A DNA stretch of 28,481 nucleotides from Promethearchaeota archaeon (lineage in GTDB: Archaea; Asgardarchaeota; Lokiarchaeia; Sigyniarchaeales; SOKP01): positions 1 to 28,481 of the forward strand of contig RDOE01000044.1 in the NCBI GenBank assembly GCA_011364975.1. Reading direction: 5' to 3'. The notes beneath the pieces were generated by a model that was not told the origin of the DNA, ran no database searches, and saw nothing but the letters and a program-made list of their open reading frames with translations. Positions 930 through 8,822 of the stretch are shown one piece after another; the first letter of the stretch is position 1, and each line of letters begins with the position of its first letter. The translations under genes were made by a program, and so were the position numbers.

Positions 930-1184
930 TTACATTATCTGAGAAGCATCGGGTTTTATAAAAAGAAGATTATTACCTCGAATAAAGATCTCATTATACT
1001 TAGCAACTGGAGAACCATCCATAATTTCTGTGGCATCTTCCAAAATCATATTCATGTAAGCATCTATCTCTTTTAAGAGCCCTCGATATTCGGTGCCATC
1101 TTTTAATCTCAAGATAATGGTAGACCCCATAGCGTTTTGTAAAATGGTTAAGGGATTTTTAGATTTATTATTCTGACTTGACAT
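930..1184 (-). CDS. Sm/Lsm-like archaeal RNA-binding protein (SmAP)
   Basis: Sm1 motif (LKDG.EYRG.L...DAYMNMIL.DA.E) and Sm2 motif (IFIRGNN). Confidence 0.95.
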   Translation of the reverse strand: MSSQNNKSKNPLTILQNAMGSTIILRLKDGTEYRGLLKEIDAYMNMILEDATEIMDGSPVAKYNEIFIRGNNLLFIKPDASQIM

Positions 1185-1302
1185 ATTTAAAACTTTATCA
1201 AAAATACAATTTTATTATAATTATTAAAAAGATATTTAGAAGAAAAACTTTTTTGAATTAAAACCTTTTTATTCAAAGGCTTCAGAATTATAGGGATACA
1301 TA

Positions 1303-1920
1303 TTGCAACCTTTTGATCATCATTCTAATAAAAAGCGAGATATTATTAAACGATATAATTCAACATCAGTCCACTATAATAATAGATATGCTAAAATTCA
1401 AAATCAAAAATACGATTACTTTATAAAATATATACCAATTGGTTCAAAAATAATTTTGGATGCAGGTTCTGGAACTGGACTTCTAATGCCTTATCTGCTT
1501 AAAATGATTAATCCCTCGAGGTTAAAACCCTTTTTTTATGTTGGTATTGATATCTCTCTAAACATGTTGAAGATTGCAAAGAAGAAATCATTTGAAATCG
1601 AGGAAAATGAGAAGTTTGCTCTAATCCTCGCTGATTTAGAAAATATGCCAATACGAAATGAATCGTTTAATAGTATTTTCTCAATTACGAGTCTTCAGAA
1701 CCTTCATGATATGGAAAAAGGAATTAAGGAGATAATTAGAACCTCTAAAATCGATTCGGTATTATTAATTTCTGTACTAAAGAAAACTGTAAATCAGGAA
1801 AAGATTATTTCAATCTTACACCCATATTGTAATGAGCTAAAAGTAATGGATAACCGTGATATTGAAGATTATTTAATTAGTGGGAAAATAGTTAAAAAGC
1901 TTAGTAATCATTATTTATAA
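1303..1920 (+). CDS. Class I SAM-dependent methyltransferase
   Basis: Motif I ILDAGSGTG, VGIDIS..ML, ADLENMP...SF..IFSITSLQ. TTG start. 3' end overlaps the convergent rio2 end. Confidence 0.9.
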   Translation: MQPFDHHSNKKRDIIKRYNSTSVHYNNRYAKIQNQKYDYFIKYIPIGSKIILDAGSGTGLLMPYLLKMINPSRLKPFFYVGIDISLNMLKIAKKKSFEIEENEKFALILADLENMPIRNESFNSIFSITSLQNLHDMEKGIKEIIRTSKIDSVLLISVLKKTVNQEKIISILHPYCNELKVMDNRDIEDYLISGKIVKKLSNHYL

Positions 1921-2789
1921 AATGATTGAATTATTTTAGAAGGGTTGCTCTCAACGTTATATTTTTTTCTGAAATAATTACTTACATTAACAATATCTCT
2001 TTCCAAGAGAGCTCGCGCATTAGGATGCGTACTAGAGACCCATTGTAGCCAGTCGATAATAAGGATATTTCCTTTTTCATCAACAACAATATTAAATTCA
2101 CCTAAATCACCATGAATCATATTTGCTTTTCGAAATATAATCTTTACTTCTTTGATGATTCTATTGAAAATTTTAGCGGGGTTCTCGATATACTGATAAT
2201 AAGCTAATTCCTTACCTCGTAAATAGGACATCATTATCATATGCCGATTGACAGCTACTGGTTTGGGAGTGTTTAGCTTGAGGTGATACAATTTTTTTAG
2301 GGCTCTAAATTCTTTTCTTGCGGCAAGCCTATTGGCATATAACCACGAAAAATGAGAGCGTTCTCCTAGAAAACTCCTCGTGCGTTTAATATTTTTGAAG
2401 CTTGTTCTTCCAATTCTATACACTTTCAAAGCATAAATATGTTCCTCATCATCCATACAACTATAAACATCCGACTCCTTTCCTTTGCCAATTAGAGGTC
2501 CAAGTTGGCTTATTTTATTCTTCTCTACTAACGCATGAAGGGCTAACATATCATAACCTTTTGAATTTAGGGTATAAGCAATTTCATTCTGAGAAGAATC
2601 TCGTATAGTTAAATCTAATTTATGGACTTTCTTTAAGCGGAATAGTGTCTCTTCCATGGGATACCGGGAATAAAATCGTATATTACTAATCGTAACATAC
2701 TCCGATCTTCTCATCCCAATTTCAATTGCCATTAGTATCCGGATATCTTCCTTCTCCAAATCTCTTAATATTTTTGCTGATTCCGTCAT
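1911..2789 (-). CDS. rio2: RIO2-type atypical Ser/Thr kinase (small-subunit biogenesis)
   Basis: N-terminal winged helix (RILMAIEIGMR...Y.L...GYD.LAL), G.GKESDVY, K..R.GRTSF, A.KEF.AL, HGDLGEFNI, IIDWLQ. Confidence 0.93.
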   Translation of the reverse strand: MTESAKILRDLEKEDIRILMAIEIGMRRSEYVTISNIRFYSRYPMEETLFRLKKVHKLDLTIRDSSQNEIAYTLNSKGYDMLALHALVEKNKISQLGPLIGKGKESDVYSCMDDEEHIYALKVYRIGRTSFKNIKRTRSFLGERSHFSWLYANRLAARKEFRALKKLYHLKLNTPKPVAVNRHMIMMSYLRGKELAYYQYIENPAKIFNRIIKEVKIIFRKANMIHGDLGEFNIVVDEKGNILIIDWLQWVSSTHPNARALLERDIVNVSNYFRKKYNVESNPSKIIQSFYK

Positions 2790-2896
2790 TTTGATATATT
2801 TTTATTGATAAGGAACTTAAGTTACTATTCTAAAAAATAATTTGGTACTAATTTAACATTTTGGATTAATATAGGTAGAGTTTTATATAAATTAAA

Positions 2897-3682
2897 CTAA
2901 AAAATGAATTTCTTATAGATTTTAATAAAGGATCTAAGTTTAAGGATATTAGGAATTTCAAAAATTGTTATACTTCCTGCAATTAAACTAAAAAAGAGAA
3001 GTAGATCATAACTACTTATTAAATACCTTGATTGGGTGGATCCTTCTTGAAATGCAAATATAAAGATTCCTTGCTGTAAATATAGTGCTATCCCGATGCA
3101 AATTAAAAGTCCAACAGTGGAATATATAATAACTTGATATTCTTGTTCGAGAACGCCAATTAAAATAGAGATACAAAATGAAAAAATGGTTATAATGATT
3201 AAAATTATGGAAAGAGCTAACCAATAATCGTAATATTCTGCCATGACAATAAAATTAATGCCAGAGGGCCCCCAACTTAAGAAGGAGGCTAAATTTATTA
3301 AGGATATTAAAGGTAAAATAATACTTATTAAGAGAGAAAAGAAATATAATCGTATAGAAATAAATCGAGATAAGCTATATTTTGAAAACTCATCCTCTTG
3401 AGTTACTCCTTGTAGTAGTTGATCTAATTTTTCTTTAACCTTAATAGGGAATTTTTTTTCTGAAAGTTCAATCCTTAATTCTAAAAGGGGGTCCTGTTTC
3501 ATTAGTAGTTCAATTGCGTTAATGCCCCTTCTGAATTTCTCCTTAGAGCTTCTAGGACCCTTCCATAGGTGAATTACTCGTTCTTCTTCATCCAAGATAG
3601 CACATAAGTCATGATTCAGAATTGCTATATTTTCTTCTATCCAATTATTCTCCCTTTCATTAAAAATATAAGTTCTTAGCAT
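2897..3682 (-). CDS. Membrane protein: N-terminal gelsolin-like domain plus four predicted TM helices
   Basis: LNHDLCAILDEEERVIHLWKGPRSS.EK...G..A..L fits the gelsolin-repeat pattern (L...D..ILD....I..W.G..S). Four hydrophobic stretches from about aa 110 to 247, then a basic tail. Confidence 0.6.
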   Translation of the reverse strand: MLRTYIFNERENNWIEENIAILNHDLCAILDEEERVIHLWKGPRSSKEKFRRGINAIELLMKQDPLLELRIELSEKKFPIKVKEKLDQLLQGVTQEDEFSKYSLSRFISIRLYFFSLLISIILPLISLINLASFLSWGPSGINFIVMAEYYDYWLALSIILIIITIFSFCISILIGVLEQEYQVIIYSTVGLLICIGIALYLQQGIFIFAFQEGSTQSRYLISSYDLLLFFSLIAGSITIFEIPNILKLRSFIKIYKKFIF

Positions 3683-3807
3683 AACGTAATAATAATTTCT
3701 AATTTATTGTGCTTTTATTTTTTTCATTTAAAATTGATCGGTATATTAGATACTTACATTAGATTAAGCATTTTTATTAAAATAAATGAAGAAATATTAA
3801 ATGCAAA

Positions 3808-4707
3808 TTATTCTTTCTCAATTCTTTGTTCAATTTCTGCCCATAGCGCCTTAATGTAATCCTTATATTGCACTATTTCTTCAGTTTTGACATTTTTAAA
3901 TCGTTTTTGAGATTTTATATAGTCTTCAATAGGCTTTCGCTTTGATGCATCTAAAAATCGTTTACTATCTTTTGATAAGATAAATTTTCCTTCATTAACT
4001 TCATAAAGAGGCCAAAAGCCCGTCTGGACAGCTAGTCTTCCAATCTCTATGGAATCTTTTGGATCATATCCCCACCCAGGGGGGCATGGTGCTAAAATAT
4101 GGATATATTTAGGACCATATATTTCCTTAGCGGTTTGAAATTTTTCATATAAATCTAAGGGATAAGAAGAAATGGCAGTTGCTACATAAGGTATCCCATG
4201 CGCTTCTAAGATTTTAGCCATGTTTTTCTTATATCCTGTTTTACCGCCAGGGGTGGTGGTAGTAAATACTCCAGGAGGAGTACTTCCACTTCTTTGAACT
4301 CCAGTATTCATGTATGCTTCATTATCATAGCATGCAAAAATAAAATCTGTACCCCGTTCTACCGCCCCACTCAAAGCTTGAATCCCTATATCAACAGTAC
4401 CCCCATCTCCTGCAAAAGCAACCACGTTTATATCTTCAGCAAGCCCTTTATCCTCTAGTGAGGCCAAAATTCCAGAAGCAGAGGCTCCAGTTGTGGCAAA
4501 AGGGGTGTGAAGTACAGATACCTTAGTTGTACAAAATCCTTGCATTCCATGCAGCACTGTTAAGCAAGAGGCTGGAACAGTAATTATAGTATTTGAGCCA
4601 AGTGCCTTTAAAGCTATTCGGTATATTAATGCCATTGAACAACCCGCACAAGCTCTAGTTCCGGGGTAAATAAATTCTTCTTCAGGCAGATCCATTACTT
4701 TTACCAA
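3808..4707 (-). CDS. porB: 2-oxoacid (pyruvate/ketoisovalerate-type):ferredoxin oxidoreductase beta subunit
   Basis: ACAGC, PASC, TPP-binding GDGG...DNEAYMNTG, and PCP. Substrate specificity cannot be determined. Confidence 0.92.
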   Translation of the reverse strand: MVKVMDLPEEEFIYPGTRACAGCSMALIYRIALKALGSNTIITVPASCLTVLHGMQGFCTTKVSVLHTPFATTGASASGILASLEDKGLAEDINVVAFAGDGGTVDIGIQALSGAVERGTDFIFACYDNEAYMNTGVQRSGSTPPGVFTTTTPGGKTGYKKNMAKILEAHGIPYVATAISSYPLDLYEKFQTAKEIYGPKYIHILAPCPPGWGYDPKDSIEIGRLAVQTGFWPLYEVNEGKFILSKDSKRFLDASKRKPIEDYIKSQKRFKNVKTEEIVQYKDYIKALWAEIEQRIEKE

Positions 4708-4713
4708 TTTTTA

Positions 4714-6009
4714 TCACGCTTCTTTATAAAATTCTTCTTCATCATAATTTTTAAGTTCATTTAATCTTAAGCCGATAAATTCAGTAGTATGTGAAATAAT
4801 ACCAGATTTTTCTTGTTCAATAGCTTTTTGCACACCTTGGATGATATCTTCGGTTTTTACGTCTCGTCCTCCTAATCCCACAATAAAACCTTTGATATAA
4901 GGAGATTTCTTTAACCCATATAACGCGGACTTTAATTCGTAGGAAAGTACTCCCTCGTAACCATATCCAATATCCCTATCGAATATTACTATAAGACGTT
5001 TATCTTTGAAGAGATCTTTTAATATATCTGCAGGATATGGTCGAAATGTTTTTAAACTCACCAAGCCTACTTTTAATCCATCTTTACGCATCTTTTTTAG
5101 AGCAACTCTTGCTTGGGAAGCAATAGAGCCCATTGCATAGATAATTACATCCGCATCATCTATTTGAATTGCTTTGTAGATTCCATTCCCATAACTTCTT
5201 CCAAATTTCTCAGCAAACTCATCATGTACCTCTTTTATTATATCAATAGAATTTTCAAGTGCTTTTTGTAACGCATATCTATATTCGAAATATCCAGGTG
5301 CAGTACCTTCTTGTCCTCTATCTCTAACATGAGGTGTTGTTACGGGATCAATTCCCTTTATGGTAGAAAGATCCGATAAATTAATATGATGCTTTAATGG
5401 GGGTAAAAAGTTATCTATATGTTCTTGATTCTCTAAAATAACAGGCATCATAGTATGAGAAAGAATGTATCCATCATACCCAACAATAGTGGGAATAAAT
5501 ACTCGAGGATCTTCTGCAATTTTGAACGCTTGAATATTAGTATCATAAATTTCTTGATTAGTTTCACACATTAACTGAATCCAACCCACATCTCTAATGG
5601 TAATGAAATCAGAATGATCTGTCCATACAGACCAAGGTGCTCCGAGTGATCTTGTTGCCAAGTTAATCACAATCGGCAATCTATTACCTGCAGCCCAAGG
5701 TAGCATTTCATACATCAACATTAACCCATGAGAGGCCGTAGCAGTTCCGACTCTAGATCCCGTTGCAGAGGCTGCACAACAAACCGCTAACGCAGAATGT
5801 TCAGATTCAACTTTAACGAATTTAGTGTTCATTTCACCATTATCAATAAACTCAGCAATCTTTTCTACAACAGGGCTTTGTGGAGTTATAGGATATGCTG
5901 AAACTACCCCTACTCTTGCTTGTTTAAAAGCATAAGCTGCAGCATGATTTCCTGTTAAAATCATCATCTTTTGTTGGGCATTTCCTTTTATAGGTAATGT
6001 TTGTGTCAT
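4714..6009 (-). CDS. porA: 2-oxoacid:ferredoxin oxidoreductase alpha subunit
   Basis: GNHAAA, AYPITPQ, VESEHSA, TATASHGL, FRPYP, GLGGRD. Coupled to porD through an ATGA overlap. Confidence 0.93.
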   Translation of the reverse strand: MTQTLPIKGNAQQKMMILTGNHAAAYAFKQARVGVVSAYPITPQSPVVEKIAEFIDNGEMNTKFVKVESEHSALAVCCAASATGSRVGTATASHGLMLMYEMLPWAAGNRLPIVINLATRSLGAPWSVWTDHSDFITIRDVGWIQLMCETNQEIYDTNIQAFKIAEDPRVFIPTIVGYDGYILSHTMMPVILENQEHIDNFLPPLKHHINLSDLSTIKGIDPVTTPHVRDRGQEGTAPGYFEYRYALQKALENSIDIIKEVHDEFAEKFGRSYGNGIYKAIQIDDADVIIYAMGSIASQARVALKKMRKDGLKVGLVSLKTFRPYPADILKDLFKDKRLIVIFDRDIGYGYEGVLSYELKSALYGLKKSPYIKGFIVGLGGRDVKTEDIIQGVQKAIEQEKSGIISHTTEFIGLRLNELKNYDEEEFYKEA

Positions 6010-6314
6010 TCAATTTTCACCTCTTCCATCGTGATGGCTTTAACGGGACACTCTTCCATGCAAATACCACATCCTTTACAATAATCCAAATCAATTTCAG
6101 GAGGAATGGTTCTTGAAATAACTGCTTCAGGGCAAAATAGCCAACAATTATAGCAACTTGGCTTTCCAGATTTTACAGGTATACATTTATCTAAATCAAT
6201 GATTGGTTTTTTCGCGCTCCAGGTACCCGTTTTTCCAGCTTCTCCTTTAACAGGTTTTTGGACAGATCCCAAAATTTTCTGATAATCTTTCTTTGTATCG
6301 GTCATTAATATCAC
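6006..6314 (-). CDS. porD: 2-oxoacid:ferredoxin oxidoreductase delta subunit (2x[4Fe-4S] ferredoxin-like)
   Basis: KTGTW...KP.ID, C-X9-C-X2-C-X3-CP, and DYCKGCGICMEECP..AI.M. True start may be ATG at 6305. Confidence 0.92.
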   Translation of the reverse strand: MILMTDTKKDYQKILGSVQKPVKGEAGKTGTWSAKKPIIDLDKCIPVKSGKPSCYNCWLFCPEAVISRTIPPEIDLDYCKGCGICMEECPVKAITMEEVKIE

Positions 6315-6569: not shown

Positions 6570-8822
6570 TTGAGTGTTCCACCAGAATATAATCGAGAAG
6601 CAATTCGAACTAAGTTTAAAGATTTGTTTGAACATTCATTAGATTTAATTTATATAAATGATTTCAATGGAAACTTCCTCGATGCTAATGAAATAACCCT
6701 ACTTACCTTAGGTTATGAACAAGAAGAAATCGCAAATTTATCCTTTATTGATTTACTCGATAAAGAGGATTTAACTAAAGCATGGAAAGTTACCAAAGAG
6801 ATTAGAAAAATAGGGAAACAGACATCTCGTAGTGAATACAAAATCAAAACAAAAAATGGAGAATATCTACACGTTGAAACTTATGGTATCCCATTAAAGC
6901 AAGACGGAAAAATATATGCTGTCCTAGGAATTGGAAAAAATATTACTGAACTTAAAAAGTCTGAATTAAAAGTAAAAGAATCCGAACATCTATTTAAAGC
7001 TCTTTTCAAAGAAGGCCCAATCCCAGCATATATCTGGAAATTTGTAGCTGACGATTTTATTTTAATGGATTATAATAATGCAGCAGATAAGTTTACTAGC
7101 GGAGGAATAAAGTCATTTATAGGAATGAGAGCTTCAAAGATGTACTCAAATCGTCCAGACATTATTGAAGATTTGAGTTTATGCGTAAAAAAAAAAGCGC
7201 AAATAACCAAAGAAATGAAATATCAATTTGAGTTATCAAAGGAAGATAAATACCTATCGGTAAATTATGGTTTTGTGGATCCAGATCTAATTATTGTTAG
7301 TACAGAGGATATAACGGAAAGGAAGGAAGCAGAAGTCAAGTTAAAAGAATCAGAGTTAAAGTATAGAAATATGATTAAAAATTTGGATGTTGGTTTTTAT
7401 CAGGTCACCTTAGATGGCCGAATGATTAACCATAATCCCGCTCATAATCGTATATTGAATTATGACAATTCAGAAAGCTTGATTGGCAAGAATGTCACTG
7501 ATTTTTGGCAAGTCCCTGAACAACGCCACCAATATGTTGAACAGTTAATGCGAGATAAATATGCTAAAAATTATATATGCCCTGCTTTAACAAAAGATGG
7601 AAAGAAAGTTGTTGTCCAGTTGAATTCACATCTAATGTACGATCAAAAAGGAAACCCCTCTGGTGTGGAGGGAACTTTTATTGATATTACCGAAAAATTT
7701 AATTTAGAGGAAAAATTACGAGAATCTGAAAGGAAATACCGGTATTTATATGAAAATACTCCATTTTCAATAATTCTGATTAATTCAAAAGGATTTGTAA
7801 TAGATGTAAATCCAAGTTTTGAAAACGTATTTGGATTTGCGAAAGATGAGGTAATTGGGAAAAAATTTATGGAGGTTTCTGTTATTCATCCCGAATTTGT
7901 GCCTACAGTTATTTCACTTTTTGAAAGATTCTTGAAGGGAGAAAAACTCCATCGTATCGATATTAAAATGCTTAGAAAGGATGGTACGGTTTTTTGGACA
8001 AACCTTCAAGCAGCACTAATGAGAATGGGTAATGAAGTATACATTCAAGCAATTTTGAGTGACATTACACCCCGAAAAGAAGCGGAATTTCTAAAAGAAC
8101 AGGAATTAGAAAAACTCAAAGAATTAGATCAGATACGAAAAAATTTAATCTCCAGAGTATCGCATGAATTGAAAACGCCTTTAGTCTCAGTGAATGGAGG
8201 CTGTGAACTTCTTTTGAGTATATATAATGATCATCTTAATCAGGAAGAATTAGAAATTATTGAATTAATTGAAAAAGGTGGTAAACGTTTAAGGTATTTA
8301 GTGGAAAGTTTAACGGATGTATCAAGGATTGAATTCAGTAAATTTGAATTAGTAAAAAAGAACCATAACTTGACTGAGATTATAAGGGATGTAGCAAAAG
8401 AATTAATGTATTCAATTAGAGAAAGAAAATTGAACCTTAGTTTAATGCTTCCAGAAGAATTAATCATTAGAGTTGATCGCATCAGAATAGAACAAGTTAT
8501 CATGAATCTTTTATCAAATGCTATTAAAAATACAGCTCCAAATGGAGATATCACCATAACTTTATATAAAGATAACGAATACGCACTAATTTCAATTGAA
8601 GATACTGGAATTGGACTTACTGAAAATGAAATGAAATTGTTATTTACGAGATTTGGAAAAATAGAGAGGTATGGGAAGGGTTTTGAATATATTAATATTC
8701 AAGGTTCAGGATTAGGCCTTTTTATCTCAAAAGAAATAGTAGATTTACATGAGGGGATGATTCGAGCGGAATCTGAGGGTAGAAATAAGGGTAGTAAATT
8801 TGTTGTAAAATTACCTTTATAG
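6570..8822 (+). CDS. Cytoplasmic sensor histidine kinase with four PAS domains, HisKA and HATPase_c
   Basis: Four PAS/PAC units ending in NITE, DITE, DITE and DITP. H-box SHELKTPL, N-box NLLSNAIK, G1 DTGIG, G2 GSGLGL. No TM segment seen. Confidence 0.95.
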   Translation: MSVPPEYNREAIRTKFKDLFEHSLDLIYINDFNGNFLDANEITLLTLGYEQEEIANLSFIDLLDKEDLTKAWKVTKEIRKIGKQTSRSEYKIKTKNGEYLHVETYGIPLKQDGKIYAVLGIGKNITELKKSELKVKESEHLFKALFKEGPIPAYIWKFVADDFILMDYNNAADKFTSGGIKSFIGMRASKMYSNRPDIIEDLSLCVKKKAQITKEMKYQFELSKEDKYLSVNYGFVDPDLIIVSTEDITERKEAEVKLKESELKYRNMIKNLDVGFYQVTLDGRMINHNPAHNRILNYDNSESLIGKNVTDFWQVPEQRHQYVEQLMRDKYAKNYICPALTKDGKKVVVQLNSHLMYDQKGNPSGVEGTFIDITEKFNLEEKLRESERKYRYLYENTPFSIILINSKGFVIDVNPSFENVFGFAKDEVIGKKFMEVSVIHPEFVPTVISLFERFLKGEKLHRIDIKMLRKDGTVFWTNLQAALMRMGNEVYIQAILSDITPRKEAEFLKEQELEKLKELDQIRKNLISRVSHELKTPLVSVNGGCELLLSIYNDHLNQEELEIIELIEKGGKRLRYLVESLTDVSRIEFSKFELVKKNHNLTEIIRDVAKELMYSIRERKLNLSLMLPEELIIRVDRIRIEQVIMNLLSNAIKNTAPNGDITITLYKDNEYALISIEDTGIGLTENEMKLLFTRFGKIERYGKGFEYINIQGSGLGLFISKEIVDLHEGMIRAESEGRNKGSKFVVKLPL

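Follow-up and report, generated by a model that had tools for sequence, protein, structure and literature searches.

Gelsolin-homology (GH) proteins of Asgard archaea bind and regulate actin in vitro, and the Thorarchaeota protein ProGel has been crystallized on actin (PDB 7c2f), as described in the available sections of PMC7444086. ProGel, the closest known protein to the one considered here, is presented there as a free, soluble protein of about 90–105 residues that has no calcium sites itself and binds G-actin very weakly (Kd 337 μM). [quoted passage not shown] In the Asgard 2DGel class, a WH2-like motif joins two GH domains. Eukaryotic gelsolin, villin, adseverin and CapG are soluble proteins of 3–6 repeats, and gelsolin reaches membranes peripherally, through PIP2 (PMC6080781, in part). 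A gelsolin-fold domain also occurs in a membrane-associated context in Sec23/Sec24, where it has no known actin binding according to the available sections of PMC7444086 and forms part of a large soluble coat protein.

Cultured Asgard archaea form actin-filled protrusions and show actin-dependent crawling (PMC13716822, available sections), and the regulators described so far in the accessible literature are soluble profilins and gelsolins. In the same sections of PMC13716822, nine GH-domain proteins are counted in L. ossiferum on the basis of annotation identifiers, the superfamily entry IPR029006 among them, and five gelsolins recovered by co-immunoprecipitation are named in the supplements; the preprint of that study states that co-immunoprecipitation under-represents transmembrane proteins. 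The words 'tether', 'linker' and 'membrane-associated' are absent from PMC13716822, in which 'anchor' and 'attach' refer only to cells on surfaces, and 'transmembrane' occurs 0 times in PMC7444086. Gelsolin appears only as background or in references in the available sections of two structure-based Asgard surveys.

Here, we describe a gene from a Promethearchaeota archaeon (assembly GCA_011364975.1, contig RDOE01000044.1, positions 1 to 28,481; this whole stretch of 28,481 nucleotides is called the window) whose 261-residue product joins one predicted GH domain to four predicted transmembrane (TM) helices. It differs from ProGel in adding the four TM helices, and the identity between the two is 16–21% in structural alignments. 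Unlike the multi-repeat eukaryotic gelsolins it has a single, TM-anchored GH domain, and the calcium ligands do not appear to be conserved in its family. Its extension is a bundle of four hydrophobic TM helices instead of the soluble domain X of the 1DGelX class, its single GH domain sets it apart from the 2DGel class (a 2DGel-type gene lies elsewhere in the genome, on contig C76), and, unlike the Sec23/Sec24 domain, it is not part of a large soluble coat protein. The preliminary description of this DNA knew of no integral-membrane gelsolin, and none was found in full-text literature searches on Asgard, transmembrane or membrane-anchored gelsolins. As an ortholog may already be counted, without being described as membrane bound, among the nine L. 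ossiferum GH proteins, we see in it a new architecture within a known domain family and not a new kind of protein.

A conserved gene of one Asgard order

The open reading frame (ORF) at 2897..3682 (−) starts with ATG, comprises 261 codons plus a stop codon at 2897–2899, and lies in DNA with a local G+C content of about 29–32%. A word-indexed search returned 77 homologs at E ≤ 0.01, nearly all of 258–264 residues, every one labeled hypothetical and all from Asgard archaea wherever the source was named (Lokiarchaeota, Hodarchaeota, Hermodarchaeota, Promethearchaeota and others). An exhaustive HMMER search of 1.84 billion cluster representatives retrieved 68 at E ≤ 0.001, comprising a near tier (33–53% identity, about 260 residues) and a distant tier (22–29% identity, 270–320 residues); in full-length phmmer alignments the distant-tier proteins match across residues ~4–254, membrane part included. 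Alignment A1 contains 43 sequences from the window's subfamily and alignment A4 contains 29 distant-tier sequences, 21–42% identical to its first row, while counts over both subfamilies refer to 45 sequences. Eleven columns are invariant in A1 (W14, D31, W40, G42, P79, E179, F209, F211, D226, P244 and Y256), and D25 and G42 are the sole invariant columns across both subfamilies. Conservation by region decreases from the C-tail (0.76) through outer loop 3 (0.74) to the gelsolin core (0.64).

The preliminary description had suggested looking in Asgard proteomes for further proteins of this architecture, and the A1 profile (E ≤ 1e-5) finds intact orthologs in 130 of 400 Asgard-phylum genomes. The family belongs to one order and is not general to the phylum: within that order, orthologs occur in 111 of 134 genomes of family f1, 1 of 1 of f2, 13 of 14 of f3 and 3 of 4 of f4, and outside it there is a single partial match (1 of 22 genomes, f16). 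The window's own genus carries an ortholog in 38 of its 41 genomes. The gene is single-copy in the majority of genomes, with a second, distant-tier copy in a few; no paralog was found in the window's own genome with the family profile. In genus g6 the A1 profile search found the ortholog missing from all 4 genomes, and as these are 89–100% complete the gene appears dispensable there.

With 77 homologs, 68 cluster representatives and orthologs in 130 genomes, the ORF is far beyond chance. Low G+C does generally favor long chance ORFs, yet the probability that this is one, or that it is a spurious fusion created by assembly error, is negligible: the same full-length architecture recurs in the 130 genomes, closed single-contig ones included, eleven columns are invariant and two confident structural models (below) agree, so that this explanation is effectively refuted. 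The ORF is a real, conserved gene. Matching DNA occurs in 20 metagenomic runs from seven studies (sediment, soil, mangrove and estuary); no RNA run is among the matches listed, which has no bearing on expression.

One divergent case was noted in a genome of a different Asgard family (G058), where the start of a 378-residue ORF at L047:1826-2962 (−) falls within the gelsolin-like domain (MYIWNGPKSS...); the pre-TM linker is retained, and beyond it the ORF becomes a multi-TM transporter of EamA/DMT-like type, a paralog of the gene next to it. This ORF is either a truncated or chimeric derivative or the product of a misassembled or misbinned contig.

Predicted gelsolin-homology domain

The GH domain spans residues 1–94 (3401..3682, −), with predicted strands at residues 2–8, 13–16, 26–31 and 36–41, a helix at 47–63, a strand at 70–72 and a further helix from residue 80, and it carries D25, the D31/W40/G42 (DWG) signature and the invariant P79. 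The gelsolin-like pattern previously noticed at residues ~20–65 corresponds to the string ILNHDLCAILDEEERVIHLWKGPRSSKEKFRRGINAIELL (residues 21–60), and both profile and fold comparisons support it. On its own, the window protein matches 0 Pfam families at E ≤ 10, nothing real in NCBIfam (the sole match is an RND permease at E 0.13) and nothing real among PDB sequences (E > 1). With the A1 profile, by comparison, the PDB sequences yielded villin (E 1.2e-6), gelsolin (1.7e-5) and ProGel 7c2f_B (1.4e-4), the ProGel match being one 24.5-bit stretch over profile positions 23–70; villin, gelsolin and ProGel make up all 15 matches at E ≤ 0.001, and gelsolin-family proteins account for 33 of the 38 at E ≤ 10. 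The A4 profile of the distant tier likewise matched villin (1.6e-10), gelsolin (3.9e-8), ProGel (2.8e-6) and a Lokiarchaeota 2DGel (6.3e-4), with 34 of its 37 matches in the gelsolin family. Pfam Gelsolin (PF00626) was found below threshold in 14 of 35 relatives, mostly in one register (protein residues ~15–65 on profile positions ~12–57) and at best with 20.7 bits against a gathering cut-off of 21 bits; because its scores stay below this cut-off, the family is best placed as a divergent member of the gelsolin superfamily that is not annotated by Pfam. In a protein language-model atlas the N-terminal part scored 0.85 to three Asgard clusters, of which 13–28% of members carry Pfam Gelsolin; as shuffled proteins often reach 0.85, this score is a lead only.

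The pattern of conserved residues agrees with a gelsolin assignment. The DWG motif is given as the mark of gelsolins, as opposed to the WP of cofilins, in the available sections of PMC7444086, and the window protein has D..W.G in place of the WP of cofilins, which also differ from ProGel by additional helices; the motif was mapped to D31 by reading the alignment of the A1 profile with ProGel. D31, W40 and G42 are invariant in 43 of 43 sequences of the window's subfamily, and over both subfamilies G42 is kept in 45 of 45 and D31 in 33 of 45, with position 40 occupied by W (36), Y (8) or F (1). In the A1-profile alignments D25 (45 of 45) is paired with the Asp of the villin 'NDCF' motif, at a position where ProGel has K. 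The residue at position 48 is E or D in 30 of the 43 sequences of the window's subfamily; across both subfamilies the count is 16 of 45. The type-2 calcium site has Asp and Glu as its ligands.

An AlphaFold2 model of the window protein has a mean pLDDT of 86.5 with no residue below 50, residues 91–100 of the linker (pLDDT 55) being its lowest-confidence block. Foldseek against the PDB placed the ProGel/actin complex first (7c2f_B, E 2.4e-4, target-normalized TM-score 0.66), with a gelsolin-family chain in every row among the matches listed; chain G of the listed actin co-crystals is presumably gelsolin segment 1. Neither cofilin nor Sec23/24 stood out among the matches listed, although similarity to them may still exist. 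The model of a distant-tier protein, P0132 (pLDDT 90.0), shows the same arrangement and again returned 7c2f_B on top (E 2.8e-5, TM-score 0.74, rmsd 2.7 Å). In the models, a central mixed β-sheet is packed against a long helix on one side and a shorter C-terminal one on the other, over about 90–100 residues. The expectation that the N-terminal region would model as a gelsolin fold has thus been borne out, and sequence profiles and predicted structures together identify it as a GH fold.

Membrane module and predicted topology

The protein begins MLRTYIFNERENNW, a polar N terminus and therefore one without a signal peptide, in agreement with the preliminary description, which had also reported four hydrophobic helices and a Lys/Arg-rich tail. 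Four hydrophobic stretches (residues 112–131, 154–178, 184–202 and 227–241) give Kyte-Doolittle peaks of 2.43, 3.04, 2.39 and 1.73 in a 19-residue window, and the model contains four long helices (107–136, 148–178, 182–203 and 224–260) in a layout repeated in the P0132 model; four hydropathy peaks also appear at matching positions in all six distant orthologs examined.

A short linker (residues 95–106; 3365..3400, −), consisting of the end of helix 80–100 and a basic pre-TM stretch, leads into TM helix 1 (107–136; 3275..3364, −), in which R111 and P124 are nearly invariant; like TM helix 2, this helix is delimited by hydropathy and the model. Outer loop 1 (137–147; 3242..3274, −) forms a β-hairpin (strands 138–140 and 143–147) and contains the nearly invariant W137. 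TM helix 2 (148–178; 3149..3241, −) is connected to TM helix 3 (182–203; 3074..3139, −), which has Y201 in 44 of 45 sequences of both subfamilies, by a tight cytoplasmic turn (179–181; 3140..3148, −), where E179 is invariant in the window's subfamily whereas much of the distant subfamily has T or S. Outer loop 3 (204–223; 3014..3073, −) is aromatic-rich, with the consensus QQGIFLFLFQEGS; across both subfamilies F209 is kept in 44 and I222 in 42 of the 45 sequences, and in the model strand 219–223 pairs with the loop-1 hairpin to form a small outer sheet. The hydrophobic part of TM helix 4 (224–241; 2960..3013, −) includes D226, a residue without variation in the window's subfamily, and leads into a cytoplasmic, basic and amphipathic C-tail (242–261; 2900..2959, −) that reads EIPNILKLRSFIKIYKKFIF, has 5 K/R among the last 20 residues of the protein, and is conserved at E242, P244, N245, K248 and Y256.

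Over the 43 sequences, the mean number of K+R is 3.84 in residues 92–106 before TM helix 1 and 3.91 in the C-tail, as compared with 0.40 and 0.44 in the outer loops and 0.09 in the TM2–TM3 turn. This bias, the lack of a signal peptide and the folded N-terminal domain of 105 residues together predict an N-in/C-in topology, as previously proposed for both termini, which would place the gelsolin domain on the cytoplasmic face, joined through the short, low-confidence linker. The idea of a membrane tether holds in so far as a gelsolin domain is joined to four TM helices; the membrane part, however, looks like more than a passive anchor, since conservation is highest in its C-tail and outer loop 3, above the gelsolin core. 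The membrane module probably adds oligomerization or an outside contact. A fold search with this module returned generic four-helix bundles, with no specific tetraspan family, whether claudin/PMP22/TARP-like or other, standing out among the matches listed and no transporter or channel family match above the generic helical-bundle level, and the TM part matched one Asgard cluster at 0.85 in the language-model atlas, probably its own.

Some distant relatives extend further. In 11 of the 29 relatives of at least 265 residues, a longer cytoplasmic C-tail carries the conserved motif [KR]P[ST][IL]L[RQ]D[KR] with an acidic/amphipathic stretch in front of it, as in P0132 (residues ~255–284) and at L042:5797-6642 (−); the motif is absent from the window protein. 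It loosely recalls the WH2-like LRRV/LKDV motifs reported for Asgard 2DGels in the available sections of PMC7444086 and, by this analogy, could be a second actin contact.

Actin and other gelsolins in the genome

Actin is represented in the genome that contains the window by one ortholog, which scores 292 bits against Pfam Actin, together with two actin-related genes. The ortholog lies outside the window at a contig end (L001:1480-2643 (−) = C142:30093-31175) and is interrupted in frame by a TAG that follows ...GIKKDE; at this codon the four relatives of the same genus that were compared read TAT or TTC (Tyr/Phe). Pyrrolysine was rejected as the cause, as no PylS scored above the cut-off (31.7 bits against 178), which leaves an assembly error or a nonsense change at strain level as the probable origin of the TAG. 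All five same-genus genomes searched have an intact actin ortholog (84–86% identical). A complex prediction of residues 1–105 (A1) with an intact same-genus actin (A2) gave ipSAE values of 0.00/0.00 and its controls were unfolded, so it counts neither way.

At least six other ORFs in the genome contain gelsolin domains, all without TM segments in the same hydropathy test: a 338-residue two-domain protein with a C-terminal zinc ribbon, a ProGel-like protein of 105 residues, and single-domain proteins of 249, 312, 321 and 347 residues with long polar extensions. The family profile matches these TM-less proteins weakly (E 0.06 and 0.145). The two-domain protein (L004:1447-2463 (+), contig C76) ends in a CPKCG...CGxCG zinc ribbon, and a closely similar zinc ribbon lies at the end of a 411-residue coiled-coil protein (L006:1910-3145 (−), contig C153) that is antisense-adjacent to another gelsolin-domain gene. 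From sequence resemblance, the ribbon may be a C-terminal module shared among cytoskeleton-associated proteins.

Gene neighborhood

All 20 of the close loci, one of them interrupted by a contig end, share the order OFOR-alpha, OFOR-beta, gelsolin-membrane gene, Rio2-type kinase and methyltransferase, and the OFOR/Rio2 gene order is also found in two further genera of the same family. In the window, the syntenic block at 930–6314 comprises OFOR delta/alpha/beta, the gelsolin-membrane gene, the Rio2-type kinase, the methyltransferase and an Sm-like protein; the OFOR block is syntenic in at least four genera (loci L016–L035, L045 and L046). Within the block, the gelsolin-membrane gene evolves fastest by a wide margin, with identities at the close loci of 45–52%, against 72–77% for Rio2 and 76–87% for OFOR-beta. 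In sister family f3, a TFIIB gene precedes the ortholog in three of four genomes examined. At these three f3 loci (L041:3442-6784, L042:2553-6642 and L043:2922-6765, all −) the next gene encodes an Eco57I-type restriction-modification methylase of 830–1050 residues, its start being overlapped by the end of the ortholog in two of the three, and an alpha/beta-hydrolase with N-terminal TM segments follows. The neighborhood is conserved, contains no cytoskeletal genes and points to no function. Also in the window, a 750-residue ORF at 6570–8822 (+) resembles, on reading its translation, a series of PAS-type sensor domains with a histidine-kinase core after them.

Discussion

We consider it somewhat better than even (a probability of roughly 0.55) that the GH domain, tethered at the membrane, binds actin and attaches or caps filaments there; the capping, severing or anchoring of actin put forward in the preliminary description would be putative consequences of such binding. 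A single ProGel-type GH domain (~94 residues) would be held by a linker of ~10 residues against the cytoplasmic face of a four-helix bundle, which would itself carry the small conserved outer β-sheet with its aromatic loop and the conserved basic C-tail. By analogy with ProGel and gelsolin G1, we infer that the GH domain would engage the organism's own actin (the Lokiactin ortholog) via its long helix; members of the gelsolin superfamily bind the actin monomer in the cleft between subdomains 1 and 3, or the filament at its side or barbed end. By confining it to two dimensions, tethering would raise the local concentration of a single domain that on its own binds weakly, and the domain could attach the sides or barbed ends of filaments to the membrane, or cap them there, thereby linking the dynamics of actin in protrusions and the cell body to the membrane. 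Oligomerization of the bundle, if it occurs, might turn a weak binder into an effective attachment or capping site. The proposal is weakened on several sides: the window protein alone has no Pfam Gelsolin match; ProGel, its closest structural relative, binds G-actin weakly; the genome's own TM-less gelsolins are matched weakly, and the neighbors are non-cytoskeletal; outer loop 3 and the tail outrank the GH core in conservation, which fits a membrane function; the gene is missing in g6; and the calcium ligands do not appear to be conserved.

With a chance ORF set aside, two other explanations have to be weighed. In the main one, less probable than actin binding, the GH fold would not bind actin at all and would serve as a module for protein interaction or lipid head groups, as in Sec23/24; the real work would then be done by the membrane module, for example in scaffolding, as a small channel, as an accessory to transport or in connection with the envelope. 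The conservation of loop 3 and the C-tail above the GH core speaks for this explanation, as do the absence of cytoskeletal neighbors, the weak similarity to the genome's TM-less gelsolin-domain proteins and the weak actin affinity of ProGel. What makes it doubtful is that the significant sequence and fold matches are all to actin-binding gelsolin, villin or ProGel domains, that the DWG signature and D25 are strictly conserved, that the family is confined to a lineage possessing both actin and gelsolins, and that the membrane module itself shows no resemblance to transporters or channels beyond that of generic helical bundles.

The alternative that reads more into the outer face is an outside-in transducer, in which the outer loop would touch a surface, a partner cell or the S-layer, and the resulting signal would alter how the GH domain and basic tail engage actin; the protein would then be a functional analog of adhesion-linked actin regulators, as opposed to a static anchor. 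In contrast to the drifting TM helices, Y201, F209 and I222 are kept across both subfamilies, the GH domain is attached by a short linker, 11 of the 29 relatives of at least 265 residues have the extra conserved cytoplasmic tail motif, and cultured relatives adhere and crawl in an actin-dependent manner (PMC13716822, available sections), all of which would suit such a role. The outer parts, however, are tiny (11 and 20 residues) and hydrophobic and are more likely to be membrane-interface or oligomer contacts; the scheme presupposes a hypothetical ligand and depends on the putative actin binding, and we consider transduction quite improbable.

The preferred reading, actin binding by a membrane-tethered GH domain, may be extended, speculatively and at a likelihood we put as low, to a family that acts as the actin–membrane coupler of one Asgard order, with the cytoplasmic gelsolin domain holding or capping Lokiactin filament ends at the membrane and the outer loop contacting the envelope, a surface or a partner cell. 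If true, it would be a minimal archaeal counterpart of the adhesion-linked actin attachment that drives protrusion and crawling. To our knowledge, the fusion of a gelsolin domain to a membrane part is unknown in eukaryotes, where the membrane is reached via lipids or adaptors. A mostly single-copy integral-membrane protein with a predicted cytoplasmic gelsolin domain is a concrete candidate for the missing link between actin and the membrane, readily testable because the soluble 100-residue domain can be produced alone, and it would show that gelsolin domains have been recruited to membranes in archaea by direct fusion.
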